A stretch of 64,000 nucleotides of DNA from Sediminibacterium sp. (lineage in GTDB: Bacteria; Bacteroidota; Bacteroidia; Chitinophagales; Chitinophagaceae): assembly GCA_965279635.1 (NCBI GenBank), contig OZ257253.1, forward strand, positions 257,506 to 321,505. Direction: 5' to 3'. Each line of letters begins with the position of its first letter. Within the stretch, counting starts at the first letter, position 1. The notes under the pieces are model-generated. The model was not told the DNA's origin. It made no database searches and was given only the letters and a program-made list of their open reading frames with translations. A program made the translations under genes and the position numbers. Below are positions 861-64,000 of this stretch, piece after piece.

Positions 861-956
861 TTTCAATAAGAGAAGGACAGAAGAAAAAAAGAAGAAAGAG
901 AGCGACTGCTTAAAGCCTTTTATAGCTTCTTTTCTTTTGTTTTTCTTTTATTGAAA
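861..956. repeat. purine/pyrimidine-word hairpin (family tttcaataaaagaaaaac...), between hemF and hemB
   Basis: Arms 861-897 and 926-956 are inverted repeats. Same family as 38306-38398. Confidence 0.8.
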
Positions 957-963
957 CCAGGGA

Positions 964-1902
964 TCAGGTCCATTCCACCGGCCGCAAACAAACCTGCCAC
1001 AATCTATCTTCTGCTGATCCCGGCACAGGTTGATGATCGTACACCCATCTTGCCCTTGGCGGTAAACTCATCAGTATGCTTTCTGTTCTGCCATTTGTTT
1101 TTAACCCGAAAATGGTTCCGCGATCATGCAGCAGGTTGAACTCAACATATCTTCCCCTGCGTATTTCCTGCCATTCGATTTCTCTCGCACTGTAGGGTAT
1201 ATCCTTTCTTTTGCTAACGATCGGCAAGTAGCTGTTGAGGAACCCATTTCCATTCGCCTGCTGGAACAAAAATAAGTTTTCAATATCCATTTTTGCATCC
1301 GGCCTGAGGTGATCGTAAAATATACCACCGATACCACGGGTTTCGCGGTTGCGGTGATAGTTCACAAAGTATTCATCGCATTGCTGTTTATAGCGCGGGT
1401 ATAAATCATTGTCAAATGTATCCAGCACATTTTTCAGGTACTGGTGAAAATATTTGGCGTCTTCTTCAAAAAGATAATAGGGTGTAAGATCCGTTCCTCC
1501 GCCAAACCAGCGGTCGGTGATATTTCCGGCCGTATCATATAATTCAAAATACCGCCAATTGGCATGCACGGTGGGCACGTAGGGATTTTGTGGATGTAGT
1601 ACCAATGACAGGCCGCAGGCAAACCATTGCTCACCTTCTATCTGTAATTGTTTGCGCATGGTATCGGTTACTTCTCCATACACAACCGAGGTATTTACAC
1701 CGCCTTTTTCAAATATGTTCCCATTACTGATGGTCATTGTTTTGCCGCCACCACCTTTTCCCCTTTCCCAATTATCTGTTGTAAAAACGGATTGGCCATC
1801 TGCCTGTTCCAAACCTTTGGTAATGGTATCCTGGAGTTGATGAATATAGTTTACCCATCTTTCTCTGAATCCACCGGGTTGATATGTTTGTGTACCGCTC
1901 AT
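964..1902 (-). CDS. hemF: oxygen-dependent coproporphyrinogen III oxidase
   Basis: 312-aa ORF with [12 protein letters not shown] and [15 protein letters not shown] motifs typical of HemF. Its start overlaps the hemE stop as ATGA. Confidence 0.93.
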
Positions 1903-2930: not shown

Positions 2931-2960
2931 TTTTTTGTGGATTGTCTTTGGTGAATTGTC

Positions 2961-3020
2961 AGTAGTGAGTAGGCAGTAGTGAGTAACAATATACTCACCA
3001 CTCACTACTGCCTACTCACT
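2961..3020. repeat. word hairpin (agtagtgagt words) at the hemD/hemE junction
   Basis: Perfect 21-bp stem, 2964-2984 with 3000-3020, and a 15-nt loop. The right arm contains the last hemD codons and its stop. Confidence 0.9.
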
Positions 3021-3716
3021 AAAATAACTTATCGCCTGTTCTACCAGTTTATCCTTACCAGGTTCATCGCTGATGATAATTTCGTTCTTACAAAATTTGC
3101 GGACTGTTTTTTTGGTGGTATCGCCTATCGCGAATACAATACAGTTTTCTGCAAGTGTGTTTATCGAAAAAAAACTTTCTACTGCACTTGGGCTGAAGAA
3201 TAAAACTGCATCATACTGCTTACCTGTTTTTTGAGGCGTTGCCGTGGTTTCGTAAACGATGATTTCATTGACGGTGATATCATTGTTGCGGAGCTTGTCC
3301 GGCAATTCATTCCTTCGTTGGTTGCCGCAGAAAAAGATCACTTCATCCGTATCGTCGTTCTCAATGATCGTGTCTGCCAGTTCTGACGCGGAGTTTGCCT
3401 CTCCTTCAATGGCATCTGTTCCGAAGTATTCTTTTACCAGTTGTTTGGTGCGGTGCCCCATGCAGTAAATACGCCATTCGGGCATCTGGCCGTTGAGCAT
3501 GGAAATGACTGATTCAACAGCATTCATACTGGTAAAGACAACGGTTGCATATTCTATGGCCGCCAGTTCTATTTCCTGTTGTATCTCGATGGACTGTACA
3601 GGTTCGGTTTCGATAAATGACAACTCATCGATCCCGATATTTTTTTCACGTGCTTTGTTGACCAGGAAACTGTCAACCGGGCGGGTGGATAATATGGTTG
3701 TTTTATATGCCTGCAT
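3012..3716 (-). CDS. hemD: uroporphyrinogen-III synthase
   Basis: Called from its position between hemC and hemE, its ~234-aa size and HEM4-like two-lobed alpha/beta sequence. Start taken at MQAYKTTILSTRPV, a 14-nt overlap with the hemC end. Family motifs are weak. Confidence 0.7.
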   Translation of the reverse strand: MQAYKTTILSTRPVDSFLVNKAREKNIGIDELSFIETEPVQSIEIQQEIELAAIEYATVVFTSMNAVESVISMLNGQMPEWRIYCMGHRTKQLVKEYFGTDAIEGEANSASELADTIIENDDTDEVIFFCGNQRRNELPDKLRNNDITVNEIIVYETTATPQKTGKQYDAVLFFSPSAVESFFSINTLAENCIVFAIGDTTKKTVRKFCKNEIIISDEPGKDKLVEQAISYFSE

Positions 3717-4680
3717 TCCTGATTGCTTCTCTGATTTTATCGCCGCCGTTGCTGAGTAATTCGTTTGCGGCTTTTGTGCCAAGATCATTTGCTCCGCTAA
3801 CGGGAACTTCCCGTGAAACAGTCGCTTTCTCTTTTCCATCCAGCGACAGTATATTTCCCTGGAAATAAATGGTATCGTCGCGTAACTCTGCCAATGCGCT
3901 GATAGGCGTGGAACAGCCGCCCATCAATACACGCAGAAAGTCCTTTTCAATTTTTGTGCAGAGTGCTGTTGCTGCATCATTTAATAAAGAACAGGCGTCG
4001 TAACTATCCTTGTCATCTTCCCTGCACACTATCATGATCGCTCCTTGTGATGGGGCGGGTAACATCCAGTCGAGTTCAATCGAATTCGCAGGGCGTAATC
4101 CGATACGTTCCAACCCGGCTGCGGCAAATATGGCACCGTCCCAGTTGTTGTCTGCCAGTTTCTGCATCCTCGTATTCACGTTGCCGCGAAGGTTATCCAG
4201 TTGGTGATGTGGGTAGCGATGCAGCCATTGTGCCTTGCGGCGGATGCTGCTGGTGGCAAGGGTGAATGTTGAATGATGAATGTTGAATGATGAATTGTCT
4301 GTTGACCATTGACCATTCACAAATCCCAATGTGTTAAATAATGTTTCTTCATCGCCCTTATACACCAACAGGTCCTTGTAAGAAGCCCTTGTCAATACTG
4401 CTGCCTGTTGTATGCCTTTTGCTAATTGTGTCGGTACATCTTTCATGGAATGAACGGCGATATCTATCCGGTTATTCAGGAGGGCCGCATCCAGTGTTTT
4501 GGTGAAGATGCCCTGTACGCCCATTTCATACAATGGGGTCACAAGATCGATATCGCCTTCGCTTTTGATGTACACGAGTTCGCTGGCGGTGCCCTGTTGC
4601 TGCAATTGCTGCTGCACAAGTGTTGCCTGCCAGACAGCCAGCTGGCTGTCACGGGTTCCTATCCGGATGTTTTTTTTCAT
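3703..4680 (-). CDS. hemC: hydroxymethylbilane synthase (porphobilinogen deaminase), carrying a ~20-aa in-frame repeat-derived insertion
   Basis: Motifs IRIGTRDSQLAVWQA, AVHSMKDVP, LRGNVNTR and GGCSTPI (cofactor Cys). Extra segment GFVNGQWSTDNSSFNIHHSTF lies before the conserved TSSIRR. Confidence 0.93.
   Translation of the reverse strand: MKKNIRIGTRDSQLAVWQATLVQQQLQQQGTASELVYIKSEGDIDLVTPLYEMGVQGIFTKTLDAALLNNRIDIAVHSMKDVPTQLAKGIQQAAVLTRASYKDLLVYKGDEETLFNTLGFVNGQWSTDNSSFNIHHSTFTLATSSIRRKAQWLHRYPHHQLDNLRGNVNTRMQKLADNNWDGAIFAAAGLERIGLRPANSIELDWMLPAPSQGAIMIVCREDDKDSYDACSLLNDAATALCTKIEKDFLRVLMGGCSTPISALAELRDDTIYFQGNILSLDGKEKATVSREVPVSGANDLGTKAANELLSNGGDKIREAIRNAGI
4262..4320. repeat. degenerate word hairpin (gaatgatgaatg words) embedded in-frame in hemC
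   Basis: 4262-4294 matches the intergenic hairpin arm 10608-10640 at 30 of 33 positions. Partner arm 4301-4320 pairs imperfectly. Confidence 0.8.
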
Positions 4681-7182: not shown

Positions 7183-7219
7183 GGCGACCCTCAATGAAGT
7201 GACCGGTTTGGTATTCTCA

Positions 7220-7260
7220 TTCATCATTCAAAATTCATCATTCAAAATTCCCTATTCCCT
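7220..7260. repeat. tandem 14-mer ttcatcattcaaaa x2, followed by ttccct x2, just upstream of hemJ
   Basis: Direct repeats read from the sequence. Same ttcatcattc vocabulary as 10646-10670 and the hemC insert. Confidence 0.8.
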
Positions 7261-7803
7261 ATGTATCTCTATCTGAAAGCGCTCCATATCATCTTCATCG
7301 TAACCTGGTTCGCCGGGCTATTCTATATGCCGAGGCTTTTTATCTATGCAACGGAAGCGGGTGATAAACCGGAACCGGAACGGAAGGTTTTGCGTGAACA
7401 GTTTTCCATCATGATGAAAAGATTGTGGTACGGCATCACCTGGCCATCAGCCATACTTACATTGATATTGGGGCCGGTCGTATTGTTCCAAGGTAACTGG
7501 CATAGGTCATTGTTTGAACCGGAAGGAAAATGGCTGCTGATCAAACTCATTTTTGTGGTGTTTTTATATGTCTACCACTGGTCCATCCACCGCATTTTCC
7601 GCCAGGAAATGAAAGGTGATTTCCGCTACAGTTCCCAGCAATTGCGGGTATGGAACGAAGTGGCCACAGTTTTCCTGATCGCTATCGTAATGCTGGCGGT
7701 CGTGAAACAAAGCATCAGTTTTGTTTGGGGAATAGTGGGGTTACTATTGTTTGTACTCTTACTGATGAGTGCCATCCGCATCTATAAACAGCTGCGCAAA
7801 TAA
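7261..7803 (+). CDS. hemJ: protoporphyrinogen IX oxidase, HemJ/UPF0093-type membrane protein
   Basis: 180 aa with about 4 TM segments. N-terminus YLKALHIIFIVTWFAGLFYMPRLFIY resembles the HemJ family. Sits directly after hemH. Confidence 0.72.
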   Translation: MYLYLKALHIIFIVTWFAGLFYMPRLFIYATEAGDKPEPERKVLREQFSIMMKRLWYGITWPSAILTLILGPVVLFQGNWHRSLFEPEGKWLLIKLIFVVFLYVYHWSIHRIFRQEMKGDFRYSSQQLRVWNEVATVFLIAIVMLAVVKQSISFVWGIVGLLLFVLLLMSAIRIYKQLRK

Positions 7804-7824
7804 ACTCTTTGTGAACCTTTGTGT

Positions 7825-7870
7825 CCTTTGTGTCTTAGTGGTTCTTTTTTGAACCACTAAGACACAAAGG
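7825..7870. terminator. hairpin downstream of hemJ (cctttgtg words)
   Basis: Perfect 20-bp stem, 7825-7844 with 7851-7870, and a tttttt loop. Confidence 0.7.
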
Positions 7871-8005
7871 CCCGAAGAAGGCACGAAGCTTTGTCACTTA
7901 AATGTCATATCTCCCCCGTTTCCCTAATCCGTAAATAGTTTTTCCCGATTCGTCAGCGGGGCGTGTTTTTGCGCGGGCATCTTTGCTGTCGTTAAAACAA
8001 AACGC

Positions 8006-8335
8006 ATGTGTCAGTATCATACATGGTTCCGCGATGAAGAACAGGGGTTTGTGGTAGAATGTGCCCAGTGCCACAAAATACAGGTGGCATTCGGTATGCT
8101 GCTGGCCAGCTTCAGTGAATCGGAATTTCACAGGTTCCGTTCCTATATAAGGACGCGGCTGTATGAAACGATACCCGATGCGCATATCAATGATAAAACC
8201 ATTATGCTGAACACACCCTGTGAATCGCTGAACCTGCTGTTCTCTTACCGGGAGCTGAATGATTTCCATGAAATGCTGGAACAGGCCGACACAGAAATGA
8301 AAACACAAAAAATGCTGCAACTGTTCCATGAATAG
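8006..8335 (+). CDS. hypothetical small protein with a CxxC motif
   Basis: 109-aa ORF with ordinary composition and ECAQCHK. The overlapping antisense ORF 7898..8329 is rich in F/C/H and looks spurious. No family recognised with confidence. Confidence 0.45.
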   Translation: MCQYHTWFRDEEQGFVVECAQCHKIQVAFGMLLASFSESEFHRFRSYIRTRLYETIPDAHINDKTIMLNTPCESLNLLFSYRELNDFHEMLEQADTEMKTQKMLQLFHE

Positions 8336-8431
8336 TTGGCAGTGGAAAGAAGCTAGACGATAGAATCAATATGTCACAAGGCCGCTGTATTCTTACAGGG
8401 GCCATTTTTTAACAACAAAGAAACGGCCGCA

Positions 8432-9604
8432 TTGAAGAAAACTAACAAGGTAAAAGACTTTATTCACCAGGTACATCTCTGGCTGGGTCTTGTGAGCGGT
8501 ATCGTGGTGGTGATTGTGTCCATCACCGGCGCTTTGTATGTATTTGAAGAAGAAGCGCGCGAAATTTTCCAGCATAAATATTTTCATGTAGCCAAGCCGG
8601 GTACACAACGACAAACCATTCAGCAGTTGACTGCGGAAGTAGCAAAGGCCTATCCCAAAGAAAAGATCACAAGCCTGCGGATGATAGAAAAACCGGATGG
8701 GGCGTATATTTTTAATACGAAAAACAGTAAAGCCATCTCTGTTGATCCGTACACCGGTAAAATAATCGGTGACAGGAATACCAAAAAAGATTTCTTCACA
8801 GTGGTATTGGATATCCACCGTCATCTCGCAATGGGTAAGGTAGGTGGCGAGATCGTAAAATGGAACGTACTCATCTTTTTTATCCTTTGTATCAGCGGAC
8901 TCATCCTGTGGTGGCCCAAACAGAAAAAATTCTGGAAACAGGCCACGCGCATCAATCTCAAAACAAAGAACTGGAAGCGGCTTAACTGGGACCTGCACAG
9001 TGTACTGGGTTTTTATGCTTTACTGGTACTATTCATCATCTCACTGACCGGTTTGTTTTTCGCTTTTGATGCGTCAAAGAATATTGTGCGTTTTGCGACC
9101 AACCAGCCCAAGCCAAAAAAAGAAGAAAAACTGGTATCAGCTATTAATAACGGGCAGCAATTTTCCTGGGATGAAGCGTATAAATACACCTCCACCAGTT
9201 ACCCGGGCAGTTACGAAACAATTATCCAGGTACCGGCAGATAGTGCAGGCGCTCTGAGGGTTTTATCAAGATACCCTTATACGATAGCCATGAAACTGAA
9301 CAATATTTATTTTGACCGGTATTCGGGTAAAATTTTGCGGGAGAGTTTATACAGTAATTATACCGCTTACGATAAAGTGGCGAGAAGCAATTACGATCTG
9401 CATACGGGCCGGATCCGTTTATTAGGGATTGGCAGCAAGATCATTTATTGCCTGGCCAGCCTGATCGCCGGTTCATTACCCATTACCGGTTTCCTGGTAT
9501 GGCTGGGGCGGCGGAAGAAGAAAAAAAAGGCGCAAACTCCCGCTATCAGGCGCTTTCGTTTATTTGGCCGGGAAGAAAAACAACCCGTTGAGGCGCTGTC
9601 CTGA
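8432..9604 (+). CDS. PepSY-associated TM-helix protein (PiuB-like, iron-uptake associated)
   Basis: TTG start. N-terminus KDFIHQVHLWLGLVSGIVVVIVSITGALYVFEEE is typical of PepSY_TM proteins. Several TM segments and a basic C-terminal tail. Confidence 0.75.
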   Translation: MKKTNKVKDFIHQVHLWLGLVSGIVVVIVSITGALYVFEEEAREIFQHKYFHVAKPGTQRQTIQQLTAEVAKAYPKEKITSLRMIEKPDGAYIFNTKNSKAISVDPYTGKIIGDRNTKKDFFTVVLDIHRHLAMGKVGGEIVKWNVLIFFILCISGLILWWPKQKKFWKQATRINLKTKNWKRLNWDLHSVLGFYALLVLFIISLTGLFFAFDASKNIVRFATNQPKPKKEEKLVSAINNGQQFSWDEAYKYTSTSYPGSYETIIQVPADSAGALRVLSRYPYTIAMKLNNIYFDRYSGKILRESLYSNYTAYDKVARSNYDLHTGRIRLLGIGSKIIYCLASLIAGSLPITGFLVWLGRRKKKKKAQTPAIRRFRLFGREEKQPVEALS

Positions 9605-9696
9605 ACCGGTTTTCCGTTATCCGTAACTGGAATTTCCCGATTCGGGAGTACTCAATGGACCGTCTGCGGCACTTTTGCACCGTTAAAAAATCACTT

Positions 9697-10608
9697 ATGA
9701 AGAAACTGATCGTTGCATTATTGATGATCGCTGCCACAACAGCCCAGGCACAGGACAAAAAAGAGAAAGAAGCCATCAAAAGCCTTTGCGGCTGTTATGA
9801 AGTAGGCTTTATGTACGCGGAAACCTTTGCTGTTGCTCCGGCTTACGAGTTGTCCAAACCATATAAGGCGAAAGGTCTTGAGTGGGTAGAACCCGTAGAT
9901 CTTGGCGATAAAAAACTGGTACTGCAACACCTGCTGGTAGTACGTGATTCTATGATCGTAAAACACTGGCGCGAAGACTGGGAATATGAAAAAGCCGGTT
10001 TATGGAAATTTGACCATGATGCCAATTGGAAATATGAAGCTACTTCCAAAAAATCAGGTGAATGGACACAAACCGTTTGGGAAACAGATGACGCCCCACG
10101 TTATCAGGGCAGCAGCCGCTGGATAAACAATAACAACCAGTATTACTGGCAAAACACCACAGATGCCCCGCTTCCACGCAGGGAATACTCTGTACGCAGC
10201 GATTATAATGTGCTGGAACGCGGCAATAAAATCATCATCACCGATACCGGCTGGGTGCATGAGCAGGACAACCGCAAAATATTACGCGCAAATGGTACTG
10301 CCGATAAAATACTGGCACAGGAAAAAGGATTCAACATCTATAAAAAAGTGGCCGACTCAAAATGCGCAGTAGCTGCTGCATGGTGGAAAGAACATGGATC
10401 ATTCTGGAACGCGATCCGCTTATCATGGGATGAAGTGCTGAAAGGAAAAACCACTGTAAAACTGTTACCCAAAGTAGACGGCCAGCCTATGTGGCAGCAC
10501 ATGGATCAGCTGGAAAAAGAAAAACTGGCGAGTACAGAACTGAAAGCAAAAGCGAAAACAATATTATCACAGTTTGCTGAAACATCTAATGCAACAGCAC
10601 TGAAGTAG
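9697..10608 (+). CDS. secreted Trp-rich protein of unknown function
   Basis: Signal peptide MKKLIVALLMIAATTAQAQ. 303 aa with many W, D and N residues. Lies between the PepSY gene and a TonB-dependent receptor. No catalytic motif recognised. Confidence 0.6.
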   Translation: MKKLIVALLMIAATTAQAQDKKEKEAIKSLCGCYEVGFMYAETFAVAPAYELSKPYKAKGLEWVEPVDLGDKKLVLQHLLVVRDSMIVKHWREDWEYEKAGLWKFDHDANWKYEATSKKSGEWTQTVWETDDAPRYQGSSRWINNNNQYYWQNTTDAPLPRREYSVRSDYNVLERGNKIIITDTGWVHEQDNRKILRANGTADKILAQEKGFNIYKKVADSKCAVAAAWWKEHGSFWNAIRLSWDEVLKGKTTVKLLPKVDGQPMWQHMDQLEKEKLASTELKAKAKTILSQFAETSNATALK

Positions 10609-10680
10609 TGAATATCGAATGATGAATGTAGAATGATGAAATAACTTCTACATTCATCATTCGATATTCATCATTTTTTC
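10609..10680 (+). terminator. word hairpin plus T-tract after the unknown secreted protein gene
   Basis: Perfect 25-bp stem, 10609-10633 with 10646-10670, followed by tcattttttc. Confidence 0.8.
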
Positions 10681-10800
10681 AAGGACAACTTGTTCCTTGA
10701 GCCTTTCTCAACACATATCTTCTAAACGTCCTGGCAACTGCATTAAAGTGTGGGCACTTTGGTGATGTGATTTCTCTGTCCACTACAAAGACGAAAATGT

Positions 10801-12852: not shown

Positions 12853-12892
12853 TACAACCCAATATTCTCAACCTCTATAAATGCACAATACA

Positions 12893-13954
12893 ATGAAATT
12901 TTTACAAGCAATCGTAATCTTATCCGCTTTCATGCTGGTCTTTGCAGCATGTAAAAAAACAGCGGAGCCCATTATCATCATAGCGGCTTCTGAAGGGGCC
13001 AAACTGCAGCTCAACGGTATTGCAGGTACAGAATCCGGCAGCAGCGCCGCCAACTCAGTATATGTTGATTTTAGTACGGATAAAGCAACTACCGCCCTGC
13101 GTGCAGGCTGGGACCTGGGCTTTTATGCAGGCGCTGATTTTCGCGTGATCCTGAATAACACAACTTCTGCTACCGCAAAAGGATTGACCAAGAATGATCT
13201 CACACAGGTAGGAGCAGCTGATACGGTGGGTCTCAACAAACTGGCCATTGGTTTTGATGTGACCGCTTACGCACTGGTAGATAATGTGCAGGGTGATATC
13301 ACCAAAACCGTGATCGCAGCGGTGTCTTCTACTGATGCAGACAATAAAGTGTACATCGTTAACCGCGGAACAGGCGGTGGTGTAGCTGCCCGTGACTGGT
13401 ACAAGATCCGGATCCTCCGCAGGGGCAATGGTTATGTGCTGCAGTATGCAAAACTGGCTGAAACGACTTTCAAAACCCTGGATATTACCAAGGACCCGGA
13501 TTATCATTTCCAGTATGCTTCATTCGATAATGGTATAGTAAGCGTAGAACCGCCTAAGAGCCAGTGGGATTTTGTATGGTCGTACATGATGTTCCAGACA
13601 GCGCTCAGCCCTACGGAAATGATCCCTTATGCCTCTTCTGATTTTATCACGATCAATTACCGCAACGGCGTGCAGGTGGCAGAAGTACTGACAGCTTCAG
13701 GCGGCAGCTATGCGGATTTTAATGATTCAAAAATTGCCAGCGTTAGTTTTGCTTCCACGGTGGATGCGATGGGTACCAAATGGAGAACCGCTTCACCCAC
13801 TGCGGGTCAGTCAGGCGTAAAAACCGACCGTTTTTATGTATTGAAAGATGCATCAGGAAACGTTTACAAATTCAAATTCATGAGTTTTCATGGCGATGAT
13901 GGCGGCACAAGGGGTAAACCGGAGTTTGAATACAAACTGGTTAAAAAAGCCTAA
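12893..13954 (+). CDS. HmuY-like lipoprotein (putative heme-binding)
   Basis: Lipoprotein signal LSAFMLVFAAC. GWDLGF motif and C-terminal FYVLKDASGNVYKFKFMSF strand pattern resemble the HmuY family from memory. Sits directly after the TonB-dependent receptor. Confidence 0.55.
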   Translation: MKFLQAIVILSAFMLVFAACKKTAEPIIIIAASEGAKLQLNGIAGTESGSSAANSVYVDFSTDKATTALRAGWDLGFYAGADFRVILNNTTSATAKGLTKNDLTQVGAADTVGLNKLAIGFDVTAYALVDNVQGDITKTVIAAVSSTDADNKVYIVNRGTGGGVAARDWYKIRILRRGNGYVLQYAKLAETTFKTLDITKDPDYHFQYASFDNGIVSVEPPKSQWDFVWSYMMFQTALSPTEMIPYASSDFITINYRNGVQVAEVLTASGGSYADFNDSKIASVSFASTVDAMGTKWRTASPTAGQSGVKTDRFYVLKDASGNVYKFKFMSFHGDDGGTRGKPEFEYKLVKKA

Positions 13955-52506: not shown

Positions 52507-52620
52507 TAGTTTGTTTTGGTGTAAGTTCCGATTTTAGCAGATAGGAACAATAGATAAGAAAAAGGCGTCTGAAATTCCTTAGCACTTGTTTAAAATGATG
52601 ATCCTGAAACTATCGAATCT

Positions 52621-52690
52621 TTTTTCAACACAGAGATCACAGAGTAAACAGAGGGCCCTCTGTCTACTCTGTGATCTCTGTGTTGAAAAA
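52621..52690. terminator. 70-bp near-perfect loopless palindrome (cacagag words) flanked by T- and A-runs
   Basis: Left half 52621-55 and right half 52656-90, with a single mismatch. Centre is cagaggg|ccctctg. Confidence 0.85.
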
Positions 52691-52756
52691 AGATTTGCCT
52701 TCCAATCCTGCACGCTATTATTAAACAGGCGCTAAACGACCATGATCTATTAAAAA

Positions 52757-53056
52757 CTATTTCAAAGTATCTCTCTTCCATGCCTCCATCCCCCCCTTTA
52801 AATTAACAAGATTACTAAACCCAAACCTATCCTCCAACCGCTGTATCGCTATCTGACTACGAATACCCAGTTTGCAATAAACAATCACCGGCCTGTCTTT
52901 GGGAATAGAACCAGATTGCTGGATAATGCTGTCAAGGGGAATCAGTTCCCCGCCAATATTAAATGATTCATGCTCCGAAGCCTCACGAACATCCAGCAGG
53001 AAAATATCTTCCTGCCGCATTCTTTCCTGCAATTCAACCGGTGAAATATGGATCAT
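52757..53056 (-). CDS. rhodanese-like domain protein
   Basis: 99 aa. Active-site loop VYCKLGIRS. Its start overlaps the kup stop as ATGA. Confidence 0.8.
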   Translation of the reverse strand: MIHISPVELQERMRQEDIFLLDVREASEHESFNIGGELIPLDSIIQQSGSIPKDRPVIVYCKLGIRSQIAIQRLEDRFGFSNLVNLKGGMEAWKRDTLK

Positions 53057-55041
53057 TCGTATTCGTTGCCTTCGTTGTACACACGTTTGAGTGTGAATTT
53101 GGAAACAGGTGCCACAATGAGCGGGAACTTTTCTACGGTTACATTACTGGGATCGAGTCCGAAACCGCGTTCCTCGCCAAGGCTGATCTCTTTGAGCCAG
53201 AAATAGAGTTTCATGATCATCTTCTCTACAAAAGGAAGTTCATTATCCTGGCTCAGGTATTTTTCCAGTACGATGAACTGGAAATCGCCGACCACGTTAT
53301 TTTTTTCCAGACTCTCGTAGCGGCTGGTAATATTTACTTCTTTATTGCTCACCAGCTCTTCCACTACTTTCCTGAACATGAGGTTAAGACGCTGCTCCAC
53401 GCGGAAGCCCAGCCTGAACTCTACACGGATGATATCATTGGGAATAATATGTTCCACTGAAAATTCAGAAGTATAGGGATCATCCAAAACATCCACGTGT
53501 ACGAACCAATAAATATCCGCCCGTTTCGGTTTTTTATTCAGGATGGAATAGATGATCTTATGCTCGATCTCTTTCGGATTATTGGCGCTGGTCATATACA
53601 CCAGGTGCGTGGCGTATTTGGAAATGGTGCGGTCATTGCTCAGCTCCTGGATCATGGGTATATAATGTTCCATCCGTACAAATTCCACGTACCGGTTCTT
53701 GATCTTGCGGCTGCGGAACCAGACATACATTACCATGAACAGTGCGCCACCGGCGATCAGTGTTACATAGCCACCATGCAGGAATTTCTGCAGGTTGGCC
53801 ACGAGAAACGATATCTCGATGACAAGATACACAACGAGATAAAGATAGATCCATCCCGACTTGACCCGCCGGCTCACGAGAAAATTGGCAAACAGGATAG
53901 AGGTACTGATCATACACAAAGTAATGGCCAGTCCATAGGCCGCACCCATATTGGCTGATTTCTGGAAGTAGAGTACAATACCCACACAACCCACGTATAG
54001 CAGGAGGCTGATACCCTGTATGTACAACTGACCTTTTTCTTCGGTCGGATAATTGATCCTCATTTTTGGCCATAAGTTCAGTCGCATGGCCTCACTGATG
54101 AGTGTGAATGACCCGGATATCAACGCCTGGCAGGCAATGATGGATGCTACGGTGGCGATCATGATGCCCGGCAGTTTAAACCATATCGGCATAATACCGA
54201 TAAAAGGGTTGAAGCCATTGTCGATCATTGCATGATCGATGGTCTGTCCCTGGAAATGATATAACAACCAGGCACCCTGACCAAGATAGTTTAGAATCAG
54301 GCTTGTTTTTACAAACATCCATGATATACGGATATTGCCCCTGCCGCAGTGACCAAGATCACTGTACAAAGATTCCGCACCGGTGGTACACAGGAAAATG
54401 GCGCCCAGTAACCAGAATCCCTTTGGATAGGCGGACAAAAACTCGAAAGCATAATACGGGTTCAGCGATTTAAATATGCTGATATCATCCAGCAGGTGCG
54501 TAGCGCCCAGCACGGCAAGCATACCAAAGTACACACACATTACCGGGCCAAACAGTTTGCCGATAGAAGCCGTTCCGAATTGCTGTACAAAATAAATGAT
54601 GGTGATAATACCGATAACAATGGCGACGATCGTGCTTTGTTTGATATCGTGCAAAGCCGGCAATTGCCTTAAACCCTCTATGGCTGAAGTTACCGTGATG
54701 GGTGGTGTGATGATACCGTCTGCCAGCAGTGCCGCGCCGCCGATCATGGCCGGGGCTACCAGCCATTTTCTCCGCCTGCGAACAAGGGCGTATAAACTGA
54801 AAATACCGCCTTCACCCTTGTTGTCTGCTTTCAGGGTAAGGATCACATATTTTACGGTGGTTTGTAAAGTCAGTGTCCAGATGATACAGGACAGAACACC
54901 TAAGATCAGGGCCTCAGAGATGACCCTTCCGTTAATGATTTCATTTAATACATACAACGGGGAGGTACCGATGTCGCCAAAGATGATTCCTACTGCGATG
55001 ACCAGGCCGCCAGCGGAGACCTTGTTAAGATTCTTACTCAC
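53053..55041 (-). CDS. kup: KUP/HAK/KT potassium uptake transporter
   Basis: GDIGTSPLY motif, ~12 TM segments plus a cytoplasmic C-domain. I place the start at GTG 55041 (MSKNLNKVSAGG). The track extension to 55353 reads through a palindrome, and a TAcaTTTG box lies at 55072-55079. Confidence 0.86.
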   Translation of the reverse strand: MSKNLNKVSAGGLVIAVGIIFGDIGTSPLYVLNEIINGRVISEALILGVLSCIIWTLTLQTTVKYVILTLKADNKGEGGIFSLYALVRRRRKWLVAPAMIGGAALLADGIITPPITVTSAIEGLRQLPALHDIKQSTIVAIVIGIITIIYFVQQFGTASIGKLFGPVMCVYFGMLAVLGATHLLDDISIFKSLNPYYAFEFLSAYPKGFWLLGAIFLCTTGAESLYSDLGHCGRGNIRISWMFVKTSLILNYLGQGAWLLYHFQGQTIDHAMIDNGFNPFIGIMPIWFKLPGIMIATVASIIACQALISGSFTLISEAMRLNLWPKMRINYPTEEKGQLYIQGISLLLYVGCVGIVLYFQKSANMGAAYGLAITLCMISTSILFANFLVSRRVKSGWIYLYLVVYLVIEISFLVANLQKFLHGGYVTLIAGGALFMVMYVWFRSRKIKNRYVEFVRMEHYIPMIQELSNDRTISKYATHLVYMTSANNPKEIEHKIIYSILNKKPKRADIYWFVHVDVLDDPYTSEFSVEHIIPNDIIRVEFRLGFRVEQRLNLMFRKVVEELVSNKEVNITSRYESLEKNNVVGDFQFIVLEKYLSQDNELPFVEKMIMKLYFWLKEISLGEERGFGLDPSNVTVEKFPLIVAPVSKFTLKRVYNEGNEYE

Positions 55042-55071
55042 ACGAAGAGGGTTCGTAAACAGAATATTTAA

Positions 55072-55079
55072 CAAATGTA
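55072..55079 (-). promoter_or_regulatory. -7 box TAcaTTTG upstream of kup
   Basis: Exact match on the minus strand, 30 nt upstream of the proposed GTG start at 55041. Confidence 0.5.
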
Positions 55080-55172
55080 AAAGTAAAATCAATCCCTGTG
55101 CGGGAAATTTGGGAAGAAGGGGCAGGGAACAGAAGAACAAGGAACAGAAGAGTAATGAATAAGTAATAGGGA

Positions 55173-55252
55173 GGCCCGCAAATGTGTACTCACATTTGCT
55201 GATTTTTCTTCGGGCGACCCCGCAGGCAAATGTGAGGACACATTTGCGGGCC
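55173..55252. repeat. double-hairpin palindrome (gcaaatgtg...cacatttgc twice) between kup and the divergent unknown gene
   Basis: Arms 55173-55199 and 55226-55252 are inverted copies, and each arm is itself a hairpin. Confidence 0.85.
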
Positions 55253-55339
55253 TTCCATTTGTTTCGGAATCTTCTTAAACCGGATCCACAACCTCCTTCT
55301 TTTAGTGTTAATTTACATATCCAAAAGCCCCGCAACCCG

Positions 55340-55347
55340 TACATTTG
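55340..55347 (+). promoter_or_regulatory. -7 box TAcaTTTG upstream of the unknown secreted protein gene
   Basis: Exact match, 24 nt before ATG 55372. Confidence 0.5.
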
Positions 55348-55371
55348 GAACATAATACCCGATACGAGCCA

Positions 55372-57891: not shown

Positions 57892-58009
57892 GGTTCAAGG
57901 ATACAGGGTTAAGGGCCCGTTTTGCACAAAGTTTGCTCATGTGTGTTTGGATCTTGTGTCTTGTTGCTTTTCTTGTGCCTTGTTTCTTTTTTCCACCTTG
58001 TTCTTTCCG

Positions 58010-58017
58010 TACCTTTG
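58010..58017 (+). promoter_or_regulatory. -7 box TAccTTTG upstream of purQ
   Basis: Exact match, 26 nt before ATG 58044. Confidence 0.55.
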
Positions 58018-58043
58018 CCGCTCATTATTATCAATCTTTTTAT

Positions 58044-58703
58044 ATGAAATTCGGCGTTGTTGTTTTTCCGGGATCCAATTGCGACAGGGATATGCAGGAT
58101 GCCCTCCAGAACGATTTTGGCAGGGAAGTGGTTATGCTATGGCATAAAGACAAAGATCTCAGCATGTTCACAACCGATGATTGTATTGTTCTTCCCGGTG
58201 GATTTTCTTATGGCGATTACCTGCGCTGTGGTGCCATTGCCCGTTTCAGCCCTATGATGCAGAGCGTGATAGAGTTTGCCAACAGGGGTGGTAAAGTACT
58301 GGGTGTTTGTAACGGGTTCCAGATATTGTGTGAGAGTGGGCTTTTGCCAGGCGTATTATTACAGAACGCCAACCAGCAGTTTGTCTGCAAGAACGTTTTT
58401 ATCAAAAACGGCGAAGGCGAAGCGTTGAAAATACCGGTTGCGCATGGCGAAGGCAGGTACCATGCCGATGATACCACATTGGATGAACTGGAGAAGAATG
58501 GCCAGGTCATTTTCAGGTATTGCCAGCCCGATGGGGCGATCGATGCTGCAGCCAATCCGAACGGCGCTATCCGCAATATAGCCGGTATCAAAAACAAGGC
58601 AGGTAACGTGTTCGGCATGATGCCGCACCCCGAACGTGCCTCTTCCCCCGATATGAGTAACCTGGATGGAAGAAAAGTATTTGAATTATTAGGGTTGAAT
58701 TAA
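58044..58703 (+). CDS. purQ: phosphoribosylformylglycinamidine synthase, glutamine amidotransferase subunit
   Basis: [17 protein letters not shown]-terminus, nucleophile [16 protein letters not shown]. Confidence 0.92.
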
Positions 58704-61169: not shown

Positions 61170-61172
61170 TTT

Positions 61173-61279
61173 CTCTGTGTACCTCTGTGCGCTTTGTGCC
61201 TCTGTGGTAAAGCCTTCGCTCTGATCAATGGAGGATGTTCTTTACCACAGAGGCACAAAGGTCACAGAGGTACACAGAG
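61173..61279. repeat. ~107-nt palindromic element, copy 4 of 4 (loop in opposite orientation)
   Basis: Arms 61173-61212 and 61240-61279 (38/40). The loop ccttcgctctgatcaatggaggatgtt is the reverse complement of the loops in copies 1-3. Confidence 0.92.
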
Positions 61280-61280
61280 A

Positions 61281-61862
61281 TTATAAACTGATCTGTTTCT
61301 CCTGCATCATCTTCCGCAGGTTGATCAATCCATACCGCATACGACCGAGCGCCGTATTGATACTGCAATTGGTAATAACGGCGATCTCTTTAAAACTCAG
61401 GTTGGCGTAATGACGCAGTACAATGATCTCACGCTGTTCTTCCGGTAAAAGGTTGAGCATCTGGCGCACGCGTTCGTGGCTCTGGCCCTGCATCACTTTG
61501 GCATCGGGCGCTTCTTCGGAGATCTGTAGCAGTTCAAAAATATCTTTGTTATCGCTGGTGCGGATGGCAGGCGCGCGTTTTACTTTCCTGAAATAATCCA
61601 CGCAAAGGTTATGTGCAATACGCAGCGCCCAGGGAAGGAACTTGCCTTCTTCCGTATATCGTTTGTTCTTGAGGGTATCGATGATCTTGATGAACACATC
61701 CTGGAACAGGTCCTCTGCGAGGTAGGTATCCTTTACAAAAAACAGAATAGACGAGAATACCTTGTCCTTGTATCGAAGGATGAGGTTCTCGAAGGCATCT
61801 ACGTCGCCATTCTGAAAAGCCAGGATCAGGTCAGTATCAGACACATGGTCCAATGTTCGCAT
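61281..61862 (-). CDS. ECF-type RNA polymerase sigma-70 factor
   Basis: Region 2 (DLFQDVFIKI, RYTEEGKFLPWALRIAHN) and region 4 (REIIVLRHYANLSFKEIAVITNCSINTA). No adjacent anti-sigma gene. Confidence 0.85.
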   Translation of the reverse strand: MRTLDHVSDTDLILAFQNGDVDAFENLILRYKDKVFSSILFFVKDTYLAEDLFQDVFIKIIDTLKNKRYTEEGKFLPWALRIAHNLCVDYFRKVKRAPAIRTSDNKDIFELLQISEEAPDAKVMQGQSHERVRQMLNLLPEEQREIIVLRHYANLSFKEIAVITNCSINTALGRMRYGLINLRKMMQEKQISL

Positions 61863-62099
61863 AGTTCGGGTTTTAGGGCCTGTGATCACGGATATTGGTG
61901 AATTTTTAATTGAGTGTAGCAGACTAACTCATTATATTTCAATGTCAAATTATACATCTTTTCATGTCTGGATCAGTTTGTGGAAAAGATGGTTTTCAAG
62001 GGTTGGGGTTATACACATTTAAGCCGTTTACAAGCGTTTACGGATTTTGCTAAATTTTTGTGCAAAATGGTTTGAATCTGTTTAATTTTATGATCCCTT

Positions 62100-64000
62100 A
62101 TGGCAACAAAAACAAAAGCAGCAGTTAAGACGAATACCATTGATGAGACAGGTAATATCGTAGTAAAAGGTGCGCGTACACACAATCTCAAGAATGTAAA
62201 TGTGGTGTTCCCGCGTAATCAACTGATCGTTGTTACTGGTGTATCCGGCAGCGGTAAATCATCTTTAACGATCGATACCTTATTTGCCGAGGGCCAGCGC
62301 CGTTATGCAGAAAGCCTGAGCGCGTATGCAAGACAGTTCATGGCGCGTATGGTTAAACCGGATGTGGATTATATCAAAGGCTTATGTCCTGCGATAGCTA
62401 TCGAACAGAAAGTGATCACACGTACACCACGCAGTACGGTGGGTAGTATGACGGAGATCTACGATTACCTGCGCTTGTTATTTGCACGTGCCGGTAAAAC
62501 CATTTCTCCCGTTAGCGGCAAGGAAGTAAAAAAAGATGATGTGGCCGATGTACTCAACGCCATCAATGCCATGCCGCATGGAACCAAAATACTGGTCATC
62601 GTTCCATTCAAACAACATGTAAAAAGAGAGGTACGTGAAGAACTAAGCATATTGATGCAGAAAGGGTTTTCGAGAATGTACTTTAGTCAGTCGGGAGTCG
62701 GGAGTGAGGAGTCTGGAGTAATTAAACGCATTGAAGAACTGCTGGAACTTTCTGACAAGGAATTAAAAAAACAACTCCAAACTCCAGACTCCAAACTCCA
62801 AACCCACGTCCTCATCGACCGCATCGTCACCAAAACCTTCGAAGAAGACGATCTGCACCGGTTATCAGATTCTATCGGCACCGCTTTTTACGAGGGTGAA
62901 GGTGAAATGTATATCGAGGTCAACAGCGAAAAATTGATCCACTTCAGTAATAAGTTTGAACTGGATGGTTTGCAGTTTGAAGAGCCGGTTCCTAATTTAT
63001 TTTCTTTTAATAATCCCTATGGCGCCTGTCCCACCTGCGAAGGGTTCAGCCAGGTATTGGGTATCGATGAGGATCTTGTGATCCCTGATAAAAGACTGAG
63101 CGTATATGAAGGCGCTGTTGCCCCCTGGAAAGGAGAAAAATTGGGCTGGTGGCGCGAGCAGTTTGTAAAAGCCGCCGGTAAAGCAGGCTTCCCGATACAT
63201 AAACCCATCATAGACCTTAGCAAACAGCAGTACAAACAGCTATGGGACGGTGAAGGAAATGCGCAGGGGATACATGATTTCTTTAAAGAAGTCGAACAGA
63301 ATTTATACAAAGTACAATACCGTGTTCTCCTGAGCCGCTACCGGGGCCGCACTACCTGTCCGGATTGTGAAGGCTATCGTTTGCGTAAGGAAGCATTGTA
63401 TGTAAAAGTAGACGGCAAACATATTGGTGAACTGTGCGAGATGCAGGTAAAGGATCTGCAAACATGGTTTGATGGAATAAAACTATCACAGCATGACCAG
63501 CAGGTGGCAAAAAGGATATTATTGGAAGTACACCAGCGGATACAGACATTGGTAGATGTGGGACTTGGCTATCTTACCCTGAACCGTCTCGCGAATTCAT
63601 TAAGCGGTGGTGAGAGCCAGCGTATCCAGTTGACACGCAGCCTGGGAAGCAATCTTACCAATTCGTTATACATTCTCGACGAACCCTCCATTGGATTACA
63701 TTCAAGGGATACGGAAAGGCTGATCAGTGTACTGAAATCATTGCGTGATCTTGGTAATACGGTTGTGGTGGTAGAGCATGACGAAATGATGATGCGTGAA
63801 GCAGATTATATCATCGACATGGGGCCGCTGGCTTCGCATCTTGGTGGGGAAGTGGTGGCAACGGGTAACTATGATGAACTGATATCCAATCCCGAAAGTC
63901 TCACCGGAAAATATCTTACAGGAGAATTCAGCATAGAGCCGCCGAAAAATATCCGCAAATGGACACGAAGCATTACCGTTGAAAATGCGAGGCAGAATAA
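62100..64000 (+). CDS. uvrA: excinuclease ABC subunit A, 5-prime part (runs off the window edge)
   Basis: Hand-translated; the ORF is open at the edge. VKGARTHNLKNVNVVFPRNQLIVVTGVSGSGKSSL, AEGQRRYAESLSAYARQF, Zn motifs CPTCEG and CPDCEG, LSGGESQRIQL. Confidence 0.93.
   Translation, partial: MATKTKAAVKTNTIDETGNIVVKGARTHNLKNVNVVFPRNQLIVVTGVSGSGKSSLTIDTLFAEGQRRYAESLSAYARQFMARMVKPDVDYIKGLCPAIAIEQKVITRTPRSTVGSMTEIYDYLRLLFARAGKTISPVSGKEVKKDDVADVLNAINAMPHGTKILVIVPFKQHVKREVREELSILMQKGFSRMYFSQSGVGSEESGVIKRIEELLELSDKELKKQLQTPDSKLQTHVLIDRIVTKTFEEDDLHRLSDSIGTAFYEGEGEMYIEVNSEKLIHFSNKFELDGLQFEEPVPNLFSFNNPYGACPTCEGFSQVLGIDEDLVIPDKRLSVYEGAVAPWKGEKLGWWREQFVKAAGKAGFPIHKPIIDLSKQQYKQLWDGEGNAQGIHDFFKEVEQNLYKVQYRVLLSRYRGRTTCPDCEGYRLRKEALYVKVDGKHIGELCEMQVKDLQTWFDGIKLSQHDQQVAKRILLEVHQRIQTLVDVGLGYLTLNRLANSLSGGESQRIQLTRSLGSNLTNSLYILDEPSIGLHSRDTERLISVLKSLRDLGNTVVVVEHDEMMMREADYIIDMGPLASHLGGEVVATGNYDELISNPESLTGKYLTGEFSIEPPKNIRKWTRSITVENARQN
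62689..62805. repeat. inverted word repeat (ggagtc/gtttggag vocabulary) in-frame inside uvrA
   Basis: Left arm 62689-62719 and right arm 62774-62805. Perfect 12-bp core, 62708-62719 with 62781-62792. The 14-mer at 62777-62790 is identical to 26454-26467. Confidence 0.75.

Follow-up and report, generated by a model that had tools for sequence, protein, structure and literature searches.

A 64,000-nt stretch of the Sediminibacterium sp. genome (the window) carries long hairpins between many of its genes, which raises the question of what these hairpins are and how they arise. An earlier sequence-only reading had listed 29 of them and proposed a structured, possibly self-propagating system rather than ordinary terminators.

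Long hairpins are far commoner than chance in intergenic gaps

Folding predicted long helices at 29 of 29 listed coordinates, with MFE z-scores (against 100 dinucleotide shuffles) from -3.1 (site 49661) to -16.3 (site 52621), mostly -6 to -16. An independent run of an ungapped inverted-repeat finder returned 25 hairpins with a score of at least 14, all 25 within the 40 gaps between genes that measure 40 nt or more (6.06 kb, out of 6.1 kb of intergenic sequence, which makes up 9.6% of the window). With the same finder, dinucleotide-shuffled gaps (n = 200) gave a mean of 0.01 hairpins and a maximum of 1, and Markov shuffles of the whole window gave ~0.05. The tandem-word palindromes are real and far commoner than chance. 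The claim that they fill almost every gap was overstated, since 27 of the 40 gaps are occupied. Among close relatives, hairpin density ranges from 0 to 3.9 per 10 kb.

Arms are 15-41 nt long, with perfect stems of 20-28 bp at 2963, 7825, 10609, 24124, 27469, 41076 and 45526. Stem mismatches (12 G:T and 7 A:C) show no strand bias and therefore point to symmetry at the DNA level. The elements and associated arrays, none assigned to a strand, are as follows (z, MFE z-score).

861-956: AAGAAAA-type, A/G-rich tandem-word hairpin in the heme operon interior, 7 nt past the hemF stop; family of 38303-38401; z -5.9
2947-3023: AGTAGTG-word hairpin, perfect core 22 bp, between hemD and hemE, overlapping the hemD stop; period p 0.001
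4263-4295: direct, non-inverted TGAATGTTGAATGA array, encoding the hemC variable loop
7213-7262: one-armed ATTCATC/ATTCAAA/ATTCCCT array ending at a start codon
7807-7888: hairpin of CTTTGTG/CTTAGTG words, stop codon 21 nt upstream, bounding on the left a 6.4-kb block missing from relatives; z -8.4
10609-10670: GAATGAT-word hairpin, 25 bp perfect, T-rich tail, beginning on the first base past a stop codon; z -10.2
14030-14115: CGCAAAGG-word hairpin upstream of IleRS, preceding stop codon 75 nt away
18621-18792: two interleaved arm pairs, convergent gap
18621-18647 with 18728-18754: pair A/A', CAAGGAA words
18663-18696 with 18759-18792: pair B/B', GAAT words
21039-21130: unbalanced hairpin, AGTTGA words left and five TCAACTC right, neighbours rbfA and an FtsX-type permease gene; z -5.3
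22352-22482: 40-nt-arm hairpin, weak periodicity (GCGAA), convergent gap, 2 nt past a stop codon
23381-23528: GTTTGGR-word hairpin, divergent gap, neighbours a transketolase-N gene and frr
24124-24195: ACAAGG-word hairpin, 28 bp perfect, convergent gap; z -12.9
26397-26467: GTTTGGR-word hairpin, mscL stop codon 5 nt upstream
27376-27441: nested GC-rich palindrome, not tandem-word (period p 0.6), first of three hairpins sharing one convergent gap
27469-27518: AATCTGTG-word palindrome, loop 0-10 nt, then a T-run
27549-27605: GTGCCTTA/GTGCCTTT-word hairpin adjoining the dxs stop codon
29581-29698: ATCAGC/TTGAGC-word hairpin, several pairing registers, divergent gap
31617-31712: GC-rich palindrome pair, REP/REPIN-like (GGCCGCTGGAAGCGGCC), not tandem-word; family of 37766
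33035-33165: composite, canonical bidirectional terminator (33082-33115) between two small palindromes
37766-37826: REP-like palindrome (37766-37798), then canonical terminator (37800-37826)
38303-38401: A/G-rich hairpin, arms 38-41 nt, paralogue of the 861 element; z -10.2
40301-40400: AATCCGTG/13-nt-period gapped hairpin separating two subunit genes of one GMC-type dehydrogenase; z -5.1
41076-41119: CGCAGATT-word palindrome, 21 bp perfect, 2-nt loop, T-rich tail, convergent gap
44317-44421: CTCTGTG copy 1, pyrimidine arm first, 27-nt loop, filling a convergent gap and starting 9 nt upstream of the stop codon
45509-45629: CTCTGCG-edged hairpin, 40-nt arms, co-directional gap; z -12.2
49661-49740: ATCAGC-word hairpin, katG/LysR divergent gap; z -3.1
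50678-50784: CTCTGTG copy 2, spanning a convergent gap from stop to stop
51608-51716: CTCTGTG copy 3, loop identical to copy 2, flanked by two hydrolase genes
52616-52695: CACAGAG-word near-perfect 80-bp palindrome, 2-nt spacer, purine arm first, flanks of reversed polarity (T6 upstream, A6 downstream); z -16.3
55169-55256: palindromic-arm hairpin (GCAAATGTG.CACATTTGC), divergent gap upstream of kup
57952-57993: one-armed TCTTGTT-type array upstream of a probable start codon at 58044
61172-61280: CTCTGTG copy 4, loop inverted relative to copies 1-3, filling the sigma/dsbD convergent gap
62689-62803: GGAGT/ACTCC inverted 7-nt arrays within uvrA, a conserved 61-nt coding spacer between the arms, no net added length

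Most arms are built of tandem words that recur at unlinked loci

The single construction rule proposed for all hairpins holds at about three quarters of the sites, where the arms consist of 2-5 degenerate words of 7-10 nt (~22 of 29 sites, judged by eye). A fixed 7-8-nt period exceeds 99% of shuffles in 13 of 29 arms, and TRF reports period-7/8 arrays in both arms of most hairpins; within the CTCTGTG family the word spacing varies from 8 to 10 nt. The exceptions are nested REP-like palindromes (27379, 31615, 37766 and 55173), the composite around a canonical terminator (33046) and site 22352, where periodicity is weak. Arrays with a single arm or unbalanced arms also occur. The window additionally has a classical REP-like family (31617, 37766). 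Two hairpins had been placed inside genes; we located one, in uvrA, and did not identify the second.

At least 12 unrelated vocabularies are present in the 64 kb, and their recurrence at unlinked loci was borne out by seven pairs (861/38306, 10609/18663, 23400/26404, 31615/37766, 29581/49661, 27470/41076 and 7825/27549) and by the four-copy CTCTGTG family (44317, 50678, 51608 and 61172). The four CTCTGTG copies are 88-93% identical, loop included, with compensatory changes in 10 of 37 pairs.

Hairpins prefer the stop-codon side of genes

The distance from hairpin to stop codon is 0-25 nt. All nine convergent gaps are occupied, as are 14 of 21 co-directional and 4 of 10 divergent gaps (convergent versus divergent, Fisher p 0.011). 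Some elements are internal to operons, as in the heme operon and between the two dehydrogenase subunit genes, and on phage contigs hairpins stand between successive co-directional structural genes.

Orthologous sites differ by gain, loss and replacement

Relatives were found to carry, at orthologous sites, a gap of 3-25 nt, a hairpin of other words or a canonical terminator. Short gaps replace the elements at 861 (14-24 nt in relatives L001, L002 and L080), 40301 (3 nt in L082) and 45509 (10-18 nt). Hairpins of CTTTGCG words occupy the 22352 site in L001 and L002, with gaps of 3-25 nt in L004, L005 and L016; the 24124 site has other-word hairpins in L001 and L002 and an 11-nt gap in L005; the 21039 site has other words or gaps of 18-73 nt; and in the 52616 gap four relatives have four different vocabularies. 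At 18621, L080 carries pair A/A' alone, and L001 and L002 have canonical terminators. The words are retained at 2947 in L080 (gap of 10-23 nt in L001 and L004), at 23381 in L001 (outer stem kept, word count different) and at 61172 in L084 (different loop; 8-13-nt gap in S. soli). S. soli has a CTCTGTG family member at 51608, which is absent in L082, and a one-armed CTGTTCC array at 50678, where L082 has a 6-nt gap. The sites are thus not identical everywhere, and this comparison shows that the elements are dispensable and have been gained and lost over evolution. Near-identical contig pairs showed 0 of 36 differences, and no indels, within hairpins.

The CACAGAGG family extends to other phyla and phages

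The (CACAGAGG)n family is also found in Acidobacteriota, Thiobacillus, Prevotella, plasmids of Nostocales (arrays on Calothrix and Anabaena plasmids) and phage contigs. One 17-nt string of the family recurs across several phyla and phages, and 88% of the family is purine-arm-first. (CACAGAGG)2 occurs in more than 120 viral stretches versus 19 and 53 for two permuted controls; for GTTTGGAG, enrichment over the control was not found (91 versus 77). One control word itself forms hairpins, in one contig. No protein family recurs beside the elements across 240 loci.

Slippage and template switching as the proposed source

We tentatively favour, at a little under even confidence, REP-like palindromic long-SSR elements generated by slippage and template switching, which are not ordinary terminators. 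Three other explanations were weighed against it.

The elements might be non-autonomous mobile elements of the MITE, REPIN or PATE type, moved by a transposase encoded elsewhere, such as a RAYT or an IS200/IS605-type enzyme. Multi-copy families with conserved stem and loop in both orientations, presence/absence and ~100-nt size differences at orthologous sites, unequal density between lineages and the spread of the CACAGAGG family across phyla and onto phage contigs are consistent with this, and the strong polarity bias of that family fits descent from founder copies. We nevertheless consider it unlikely. Target-site duplications were not found; GTAG/CGTC tags are absent (3 of 25 hairpins match, two of them explained by words or a stop codon); the window's 51 genes include none for a transposase, RAYT, integrase or reverse transcriptase; and the 240 loci share no neighbouring protein family. 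Many cognate enzymes would be needed to serve the 12 or more unrelated vocabularies of the 64 kb, and insertion of a single unit cannot yield the uvrA arms or interleaved arms. With neither such enzyme genes in the window nor target-site duplications, and no polymorphism of the elements in near-identical contig pairs, the proposed self-propagation gained no support.

Alternatively, the hairpins could be the lineage's own terminators, long, bidirectional and U-tract-independent, favoured by selection at the ends of genes instead of canonical intrinsic ones. The filled convergent gaps, the proximity to stop codons and the compensatory changes that maintain pairing agree with this, as do canonical hairpin-plus-T scan counts barely above shuffles in the window, where the only clear canonical cases are 33100, 37800, 41076 and 47264; downstream of the IleRS neighbour, moreover, the window and L080 have a tandem-word hairpin where L001 and L002 have canonical terminators. 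However, most hairpins lack a T-tract (T-rich tails are few: 10609, 24124, 27469 and 41076), the flanks of 52616 have reversed polarity and G:U strand bias is absent. Elements also lie within operons (hemD/hemE, hemF/hemB and the dehydrogenase subunits, with orthologous gaps of 3-24 nt), in four divergent gaps, within uvrA and between co-directional phage structural genes, and 3-11 nt between convergent genes suffices in relatives. This explanation is distinctly unlikely. With stems of 20-41 bp, a U-tract mostly absent and some sites in operons and divergent promoter gaps, the elements are probably not ordinary transcription terminators, in agreement with the sequence-only reading.

Very unlikely, finally, is that the arrays are cooperative sites for a protein reading 7-8 nt per subunit (a cold-shock/OB-fold RNA chaperone or a heptad-binding DNA protein), with the hairpin as a switch opened or closed by binding: the strict dominant period of 7-8 nt, the one-armed arrays adjoining start or stop codons, the viral excess of (CACAGAGG)2 and the binding of CspB at one protein per heptamer (cited in PMC4679880) would fit, but the vocabulary is open-ended with dozens of unrelated words, a control word also forms hairpins, GTTTGGAG is not enriched and a candidate reader was not identified.

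Under slippage and template switching, a word array would be made and lengthened by replication slippage in steps of 7-10 nt, and template switching during replication may then copy it as its reverse complement, creating or repairing the second arm. Such switching would explain the near-perfect Watson-Crick arms, the mirrored word variants and the multi-base compensatory changes. In uvrA the arms enclose a conserved coding spacer, and at 18621-18792 two pairs interleave; both observations point to arm-by-arm templated copying and, together with the one-armed arrays, argue against unitary insertion and for generation in place. Whole units may occasionally be copied into other gaps, which would explain identical loops at four sites, and at least one word family appears to cross lineages, plausibly via phages. 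Against this reading, the near-identical contig pairs revealed neither a slippage nor a template-switch event, and a purely mutational origin does not explain that common loop, the 17-nt string of the CACAGAGG family in several phyla and phages, or the 88% purine-arm-first polarity of that family. Transcribed elements would form RNA hairpins of 20-40 bp beside the stop codon, which would stop 3' exonucleases, be RNase III substrates and insulate convergent genes, and would not work as canonical U-tract terminators.

Comparison with known systems

Like REP, BIME and REPIN sequences of Proteobacteria, the elements are palindromes in high copy number outside genes, found at 3' ends and in operon interiors, dispensable and strain-variable. 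REPs are known to stabilise mRNAs at the 3' end and to modulate translation termination, and a REP unit is a single imperfect 20-40 nt palindrome that has a cognate RAYT and whose GTAG/CGTC head is conserved. In contrast, the arms in the window are tandem words without such a tag, and no RAYT lies within the window. The behaviour is REP-like: dispensable multi-copy DNA that piles up where tolerated, just past stop codons, operons included.

Intrinsic (Rho-independent) terminators likewise place a hairpin downstream of the stop codon, some bidirectionally between convergent genes, but stems in the window are 2-4 times longer, loops are up to ~60 nt long, the U-tract is in most cases missing or reversed, and operons, divergent gaps and one coding region harbour elements as well. 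By template switching, perfect stems can arise and be repaired in a single event (Monttinen and Loytynoja 2022, PMC8794818); the hairpins described there share the perfect reverse-complement stems and multi-base compensatory changes, but that mechanism concerns stems of RNA genes, whereas in the window template switching would act on tandem-word arrays.

The sequence-only reading had left open whether such elements are already described for this lineage. Comparable repeats exist in Xanthomonas (PMC4692102) and cyanobacteria (PMC2670836); for the CACAGAGG word, or for such repeats in Chitinophagaceae, we found nothing in the literature. Cyanobacterial STRR and long SSRs (PMC2670836, PMC4679880) are also heptameric intergenic arrays of several vocabularies, with some hairpins near gene ends, and the same word occurs across phyla by a transfer mechanism that is not known; the arrays that we found in cyanobacteria are direct repeats with one arm, whereas the window elements are mostly balanced inverted pairs. 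Xanthomonas genomes carry hundreds of GGGAATC repeats within ~50 bp of ORF ends and 70-75 convergent heptamer-repeat pairs each, which are intergenic and seldom found between divergent ORFs (Rehm et al. 2015, PMC4692102). Both systems have tandem 7-nt units on opposite strands, convergent pairs able to form stem-loops, and gene neighbours kept in sister species while length and sequence vary. A single G-rich word is used in Xanthomonas, where its potential to form G-quadruplexes was studied (PMC4692102); the window, in another phylum, has its 12 or more vocabularies, mostly not G-rich, near-perfect stems and loop-sharing families. The function of both the Xanthomonas inverted heptamers (PMC4692102) and the cyanobacterial STRR (PMC2670836) is unknown. 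The elements of the window are the Bacteroidota counterpart of these Xanthomonas and cyanobacterial heptamers, members of a little-studied repeat class present in other phyla and in phages.

Long hairpins of the intergenic DNA

All 29 coordinates at which a sequence-only reading had listed long intergenic hairpins fold into long helices, with minimum free energy z-scores of -3.1 to -16.3 computed against dinucleotide shuffles. An independent ungapped inverted-repeat finder (score of at least 14) returned 25 hairpins, as against 0.01 in shuffled intergenic DNA. All 25 lie in intergenic DNA, which makes up 6.1 kb (9.6%) of the window. The arms measure 15-41 nt, the loops 0-62 nt, and in seven stems 20-28 bp are perfectly paired.

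By TRF and a periodicity test, most hairpins have arrays of period 7 or 8 in both arms. The proposal that one rule, arms built of tandem copies of a short word, governs the whole class held at about 22 of the 29 sites and failed at nested palindromes and a terminator composite:

27379, nested REP-like palindrome
31615, nested REP-like palindrome
33046, hairpin enclosing a canonical terminator
37766, nested REP-like palindrome with a canonical terminator directly behind it at 37800
55173, nested REP-like palindrome

The CTCTGTG family uses one word at a spacing of 8-10 nt; among the matches listed for CACAGAG the spacing was 8 nt in 128 cases and 9 nt in 54. Stem mismatches are scarce, about 33 per about 680 pairs. 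They showed no strand bias of the kind that would mark a functional RNA strand (12 G:T versus 7 A:C), indicating that the symmetry resides in the DNA or in both transcripts.

Position relative to genes

The window (46% G+C) contains about 51 housekeeping genes, including a heme operon, hemH, rbfA, frr, dxs, katG with a LysR regulator, kup, dsbD, uvrA and the genes of IleRS, MetRS, a class II RNR and an ECF sigma factor; no tRNA or tmRNA gene was found in it. Using gap classes taken from the curated gene map, we found that hairpins occupy all 9 convergent gaps, 14 of the 21 co-directional gaps of 40 nt or more, and 4 of 10 divergent gaps (convergent versus divergent, Fisher p 0.011). Hairpins start 0-25 nt from a stop codon, and those at 44317, 50678 and 61172 fill convergent gaps from stop to stop. 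Hairpins also lie within operons, between hemF and hemB (861) and between hemD and hemE (2947), and the hairpin at 40301 separates the genes of two subunits of one dehydrogenase, a gap of 3 nt in the relative L082. One coding-region site, inside uvrA, is occupied as well.

Because the hairpins lack stop codons, several longest ORFs extend into them past the true starts, so that ORF predictions are inflated. The starts were reset as follows:

53053-55353, start reset to 55041 by homologue alignment (kup)
21049-22350, start reset to 21136 by homologue alignment
23394-24098, start reset to 23535, the first start codon behind the hairpin
31647-33032, start reset to 31731, the first start codon behind the hairpin
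57933-58703, start reset to 58044 from orthologue length (220 aa in Sediminibacterium soli, L081)

Two further features were noticed on the gene map. A 42-nt coding tandem repeat (x4.4, 17659-17842) gives a DksA/TraR zinc-finger protein (17618-18568) a Lys/Ala/Pro-rich stretch in its N-terminal half. Neither a strong hairpin nor an Rfam match was found in the 417 nt (33951-34367) that precede the class II (B12-dependent) ribonucleotide reductase gene.

Gain and loss at orthologous gaps

The window has its nearest relatives among Sediminibacterium-like Chitinophagaceae: three MAGs match its IleRS at 82-83% identity, and Kup is 89% identical to a metagenome contig and 88% to S. soli. We compared the gaps one by one, through synteny, with seven relatives. 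Orthologous gaps that lack the hairpin are very short as a rule, with 14-24 nt at 861, 10-23 nt at 2947, 3-25 nt at 22352, 10-18 nt at 45509, 6 nt at 50678 and 8-13 nt at 61172, indicating that the elements are about 100 nt of added, dispensable DNA. Gap 24124 holds three vocabularies (sets of words) across genomes and is empty in one; gap 52616 holds four; gap 18621 has a hairpin in the window and in L080 and a canonical terminator in L001 and L002. Gain and loss among sister genomes, put forward as a check on the class, is supported, the same gaps being empty, differently worded or occupied by a canonical terminator. At some sites, across about 83% protein identity, words are kept while word counts change (2947 and 18621 against L080, 23400 against L001, 61172 against L084). 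Divergent (promoter) gaps free of hairpins vary little in length across all the relatives; the tightest is 20611, at 62-66 nt in seven genomes. Close relatives have between 0 and 3.9 hairpins per 10 kb; for the majority of other Chitinophagaceae the figure is about 0-0.4. Hypervariability of the contingency-locus type was rejected: across seven pairs of contigs with 99.9-100% identity, none of 36 differences and no indel fell inside a hairpin.

Three other observations concern these genomes. A 6.4-kb block of five genes (7804-14218; DUF6686, PepSY_TM, DUF6607, a TonB-dependent receptor and an HmuY-like gene) lies between two genes that are direct neighbours in L001 and L004, and is edged by hairpins of related words, CTTTGTG at 7825 and CGCAAAGG at 14030. 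S. soli carries a long one-armed CTGTTCC(T/C)TG array (L081, 14160-14290) in the convergent gap orthologous to 50676-50785. The longest hairpin seen, in a Chitinophagaceae MAG (L023, 19779-20061), has 89-nt arms of about 11 GTGAGAGG-type words.

Families, covariation and evidence for arms made separately

The four copies of the CTCTGTG family (44317, 50678, 51608 and 61172) share 88-93% identity across about 109 nt, a figure that includes the loop. Two of the loops are the same and another is inverted. Further vocabularies are each found at pairs of sites in the window, in keeping with the earlier suggestion of recurring vocabularies. Double compensatory changes distinguish CTCTGTG copies, for example CCTTTGTG/CACAAAGG versus CCTCCGTG/CACGGAGG, and a ten-member alignment showed changes on both sides in 10 of 37 pairs.

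Several loci indicate that arms can arise separately. In uvrA, two 7-nt arrays (GGAGT-type and ACTCC-type) surround a 61-nt spacer encoding a conserved peptide; the relatives have equal length at this site and no repeat. The porphobilinogen deaminase gene hemC has a perfect direct array of 14-nt period (4263-4295, TGAATGTTGAATGA x2.4) that encodes a variable loop, which in relatives has equal length and unrelated residues. At 18621-18792 two arm pairs are interleaved in the order A-B-A'-B', an arrangement that insertion of one complete hairpin cannot explain; L080 has A-A' only. One-armed or unbalanced arrays occur at 21039, in S. soli, in L084 and at two further sites of the window:

7213-7262, one-armed heptamer array with no inverted partner, ending exactly at a start codon
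57952-57993, one-armed heptamer array with no inverted partner, ahead of the start codon (58044) that is probably the true one of a PurQ-like gene

Tandem units are generally accepted to arise by slippage. Template switching during replication is documented as able to build or mend a perfect stem in a single event (PMC8794818), and polymerase geometry has been offered as the reason for the heptamer preference (discussed in PMC4692102). In the best-supported reading, slippage and template switching would together generate and maintain the palindromic elements, whole units being copied now and then, and the elements would be tolerated mainly at 3' ends. There they probably act as RNA 3' hairpins. 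RNase III sites of the phage T7 type are intercistronic double-stranded RNA stems of at least 20 bp that are cleaved by RNase III; stem length and intercistronic position make the elements putative sites of this type. With gaps in relatives, the uvrA arms and a shared word family at hand, three questions become directly testable: whether long perfect hairpins originate by slippage and template switching or by transposition, what effect they have on operon expression, and why the step is 7-8 nt.

The CACAGAGG family in other lineages and phages

A metagenome scan with a 17-mer of the CTCTGTG family detected at least 46 (CACAGAGG)n-loop-(CCTCTGTG)n hairpins, on contigs of 37-68% G+C; the 17-nt pattern is short and some of the 120 matches listed may be due to chance, so that the analysis was confined to the 46 that have a paired family hairpin. 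Exact protein look-ups assigned three of these contigs to Thermoanaerobaculia, Prevotella and Thiobacillus. In IMG/VR, (CACAGAGG)2 stretches numbered more than 120, versus 19 and 53 for two permuted controls, and of 120 viral loci among the matches listed, 47 have a family hairpin. Some contigs encoding terminase-, capsid- and tape-measure-like proteins, as recognized by eye from translated ORFs, carry 6-14 tandem-word hairpins of several vocabularies between co-directional genes. BLAST with a CACAGAGG element gave no match among cultured phages and, among plasmids, found only two cyanobacterial one-armed arrays, located right behind stop codons on Calothrix and Anabaena plasmids. The family ranges over Bacteroidota, Acidobacteriota, Betaproteobacteria, Cyanobacteria and phage genomes, and co-occurs with many lineage-specific vocabularies. 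Its octamer palindromes share a conserved end, ...CCTCTGTGGT(A/G)AA. Polarity is purine arm first in 106 against 15 of the matches listed (88%), and pyrimidine arm first in the window's lineage. The word GTTTGGAG was not enriched in viral contigs (91 stretches versus 77 for the permuted control), so that wide recurrence across lineages is demonstrated for the CACAGAGG family only.

Two side observations come from viral contigs. In IMGVR_UViG_3300005512_004212 (L447, L467, L508) the permuted control word GGTTGTAG itself occurs as three inverted pairs some 120 nt apart, indicating that the vocabulary is open-ended. Contigs L230, L226 and L251 (65-67% G+C) hold many GC-rich REP-like palindromes of the CGTCGTCCCGGCGAAAGCCGGGACCCAC type beside tandem-word hairpins, a mix that resembles the window (31617/37766).

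Slippage and template switching leave the spread of this phage-borne family across phyla, and its polarity bias, unexplained, and we regard these as the most interesting loose end. The conserved end, polarity, spread and mix of vocabularies could mark an undescribed sequence-specific system, either an enzyme that writes or copies arrays or a conserved reader factor, a reading we consider improbable. If true, these palindromes would be phage-carried non-coding punctuation of a new class, mobile or templated, and not a by-product of replication errors.

Terminators, mobile elements and other classes

The sequence-only reading had also raised possible self-propagation, which the results did not establish. 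REP, BIME and REPIN elements are extragenic multi-copy palindromes, as are the hairpins, whose families have 2-4 copies in 64 kb; a GTAG/CGTC REP head was present in 3 of 25, at inconsistent positions. The window's 51 genes encode no transposase, RAYT, integrase or reverse transcriptase, no IS was found in the window, and the flanks of the four-copy CTCTGTG family have no target-site duplication in common, as MITEs would. Among the matches listed (240 loci), no protein family recurred beside members of the CACAGAGG family beyond related phage genomes.

In intrinsic terminators the stem is G+C-rich and about 5-14 bp long, the loop measures 3-8 nt and a U-tract follows directly 3' of the stem. 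Arms of 15-41 nt and loops of 0-62 nt do not agree with this; only 33082-33115, 37800-37826, 47231-47264 and 41076 match in stem and loop, and T-rich tails occur only at 10609, 24124, 27469 and 41076. At 52616 the 80-bp palindrome is preceded by T6 and followed by A6, a polarity opposite to that of a terminator. Long stems, few T-rich tails, these reversed flanks and the intra-operon sites all agree with the earlier judgement that the hairpins are not ordinary terminators.

Rfam 15 gave no match at the gathering score, and at permissive E-values only sub-threshold eukaryotic miRNA-precursor models, which are generic long hairpins; in automated scans the elements mimic both miRNA precursors and terminators. 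In-frame insertion of the RPE type was rejected for uvrA, where the arms replace variable segments with no net insertion relative to L081 and L082. There is no spacer-repeat architecture of a CRISPR, and an assembly artefact is ruled out by the presence of the elements at orthologous sites of genomes assembled independently.

Comparison with known repeat systems

Heptamer and octamer repeats are over-represented in bacterial genomes. The window is an extreme multi-vocabulary case, in a phylum without a known earlier description of such repeats, and its elements could be used as strain markers. Neither Chitinophagaceae nor the CACAGAGG word yielded a report in our literature search, and full-text matches to the motif strings were only to unrelated eukaryotic primers. 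Cyanobacterial STRR heptamers are able to form hairpins near gene ends (PMC2670836), and TAACTGA heptamer arrays are common to Beggiatoaceae, Cyanobacteria and Bacteroidetes, by a transfer route that is not known (PMC4679880).

The nearest described system is that of the inverted GGGAATC heptamer arrays of Xanthomonas (Rehm et al. 2015, PMC4692102), with 70-75 convergent array pairs per genome. Those arrays are intergenic, near ORF ends and rare between divergent ORFs; they differ between sister species, and the search for their function was negative (PMC4692102). The arrays of the window are paired in the same convergent orientation. Long SSRs and STRRs consist of degenerate tandem units of 5-11 nt, mostly 7; the arrays of the window, in which periods of 7-8 dominate, agree with this and share with them the intergenic bias, the nearness to ORF ends and the rarity between divergent ORFs. 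REP-like palindromic long-SSR elements is the best-supported description of the hairpins.
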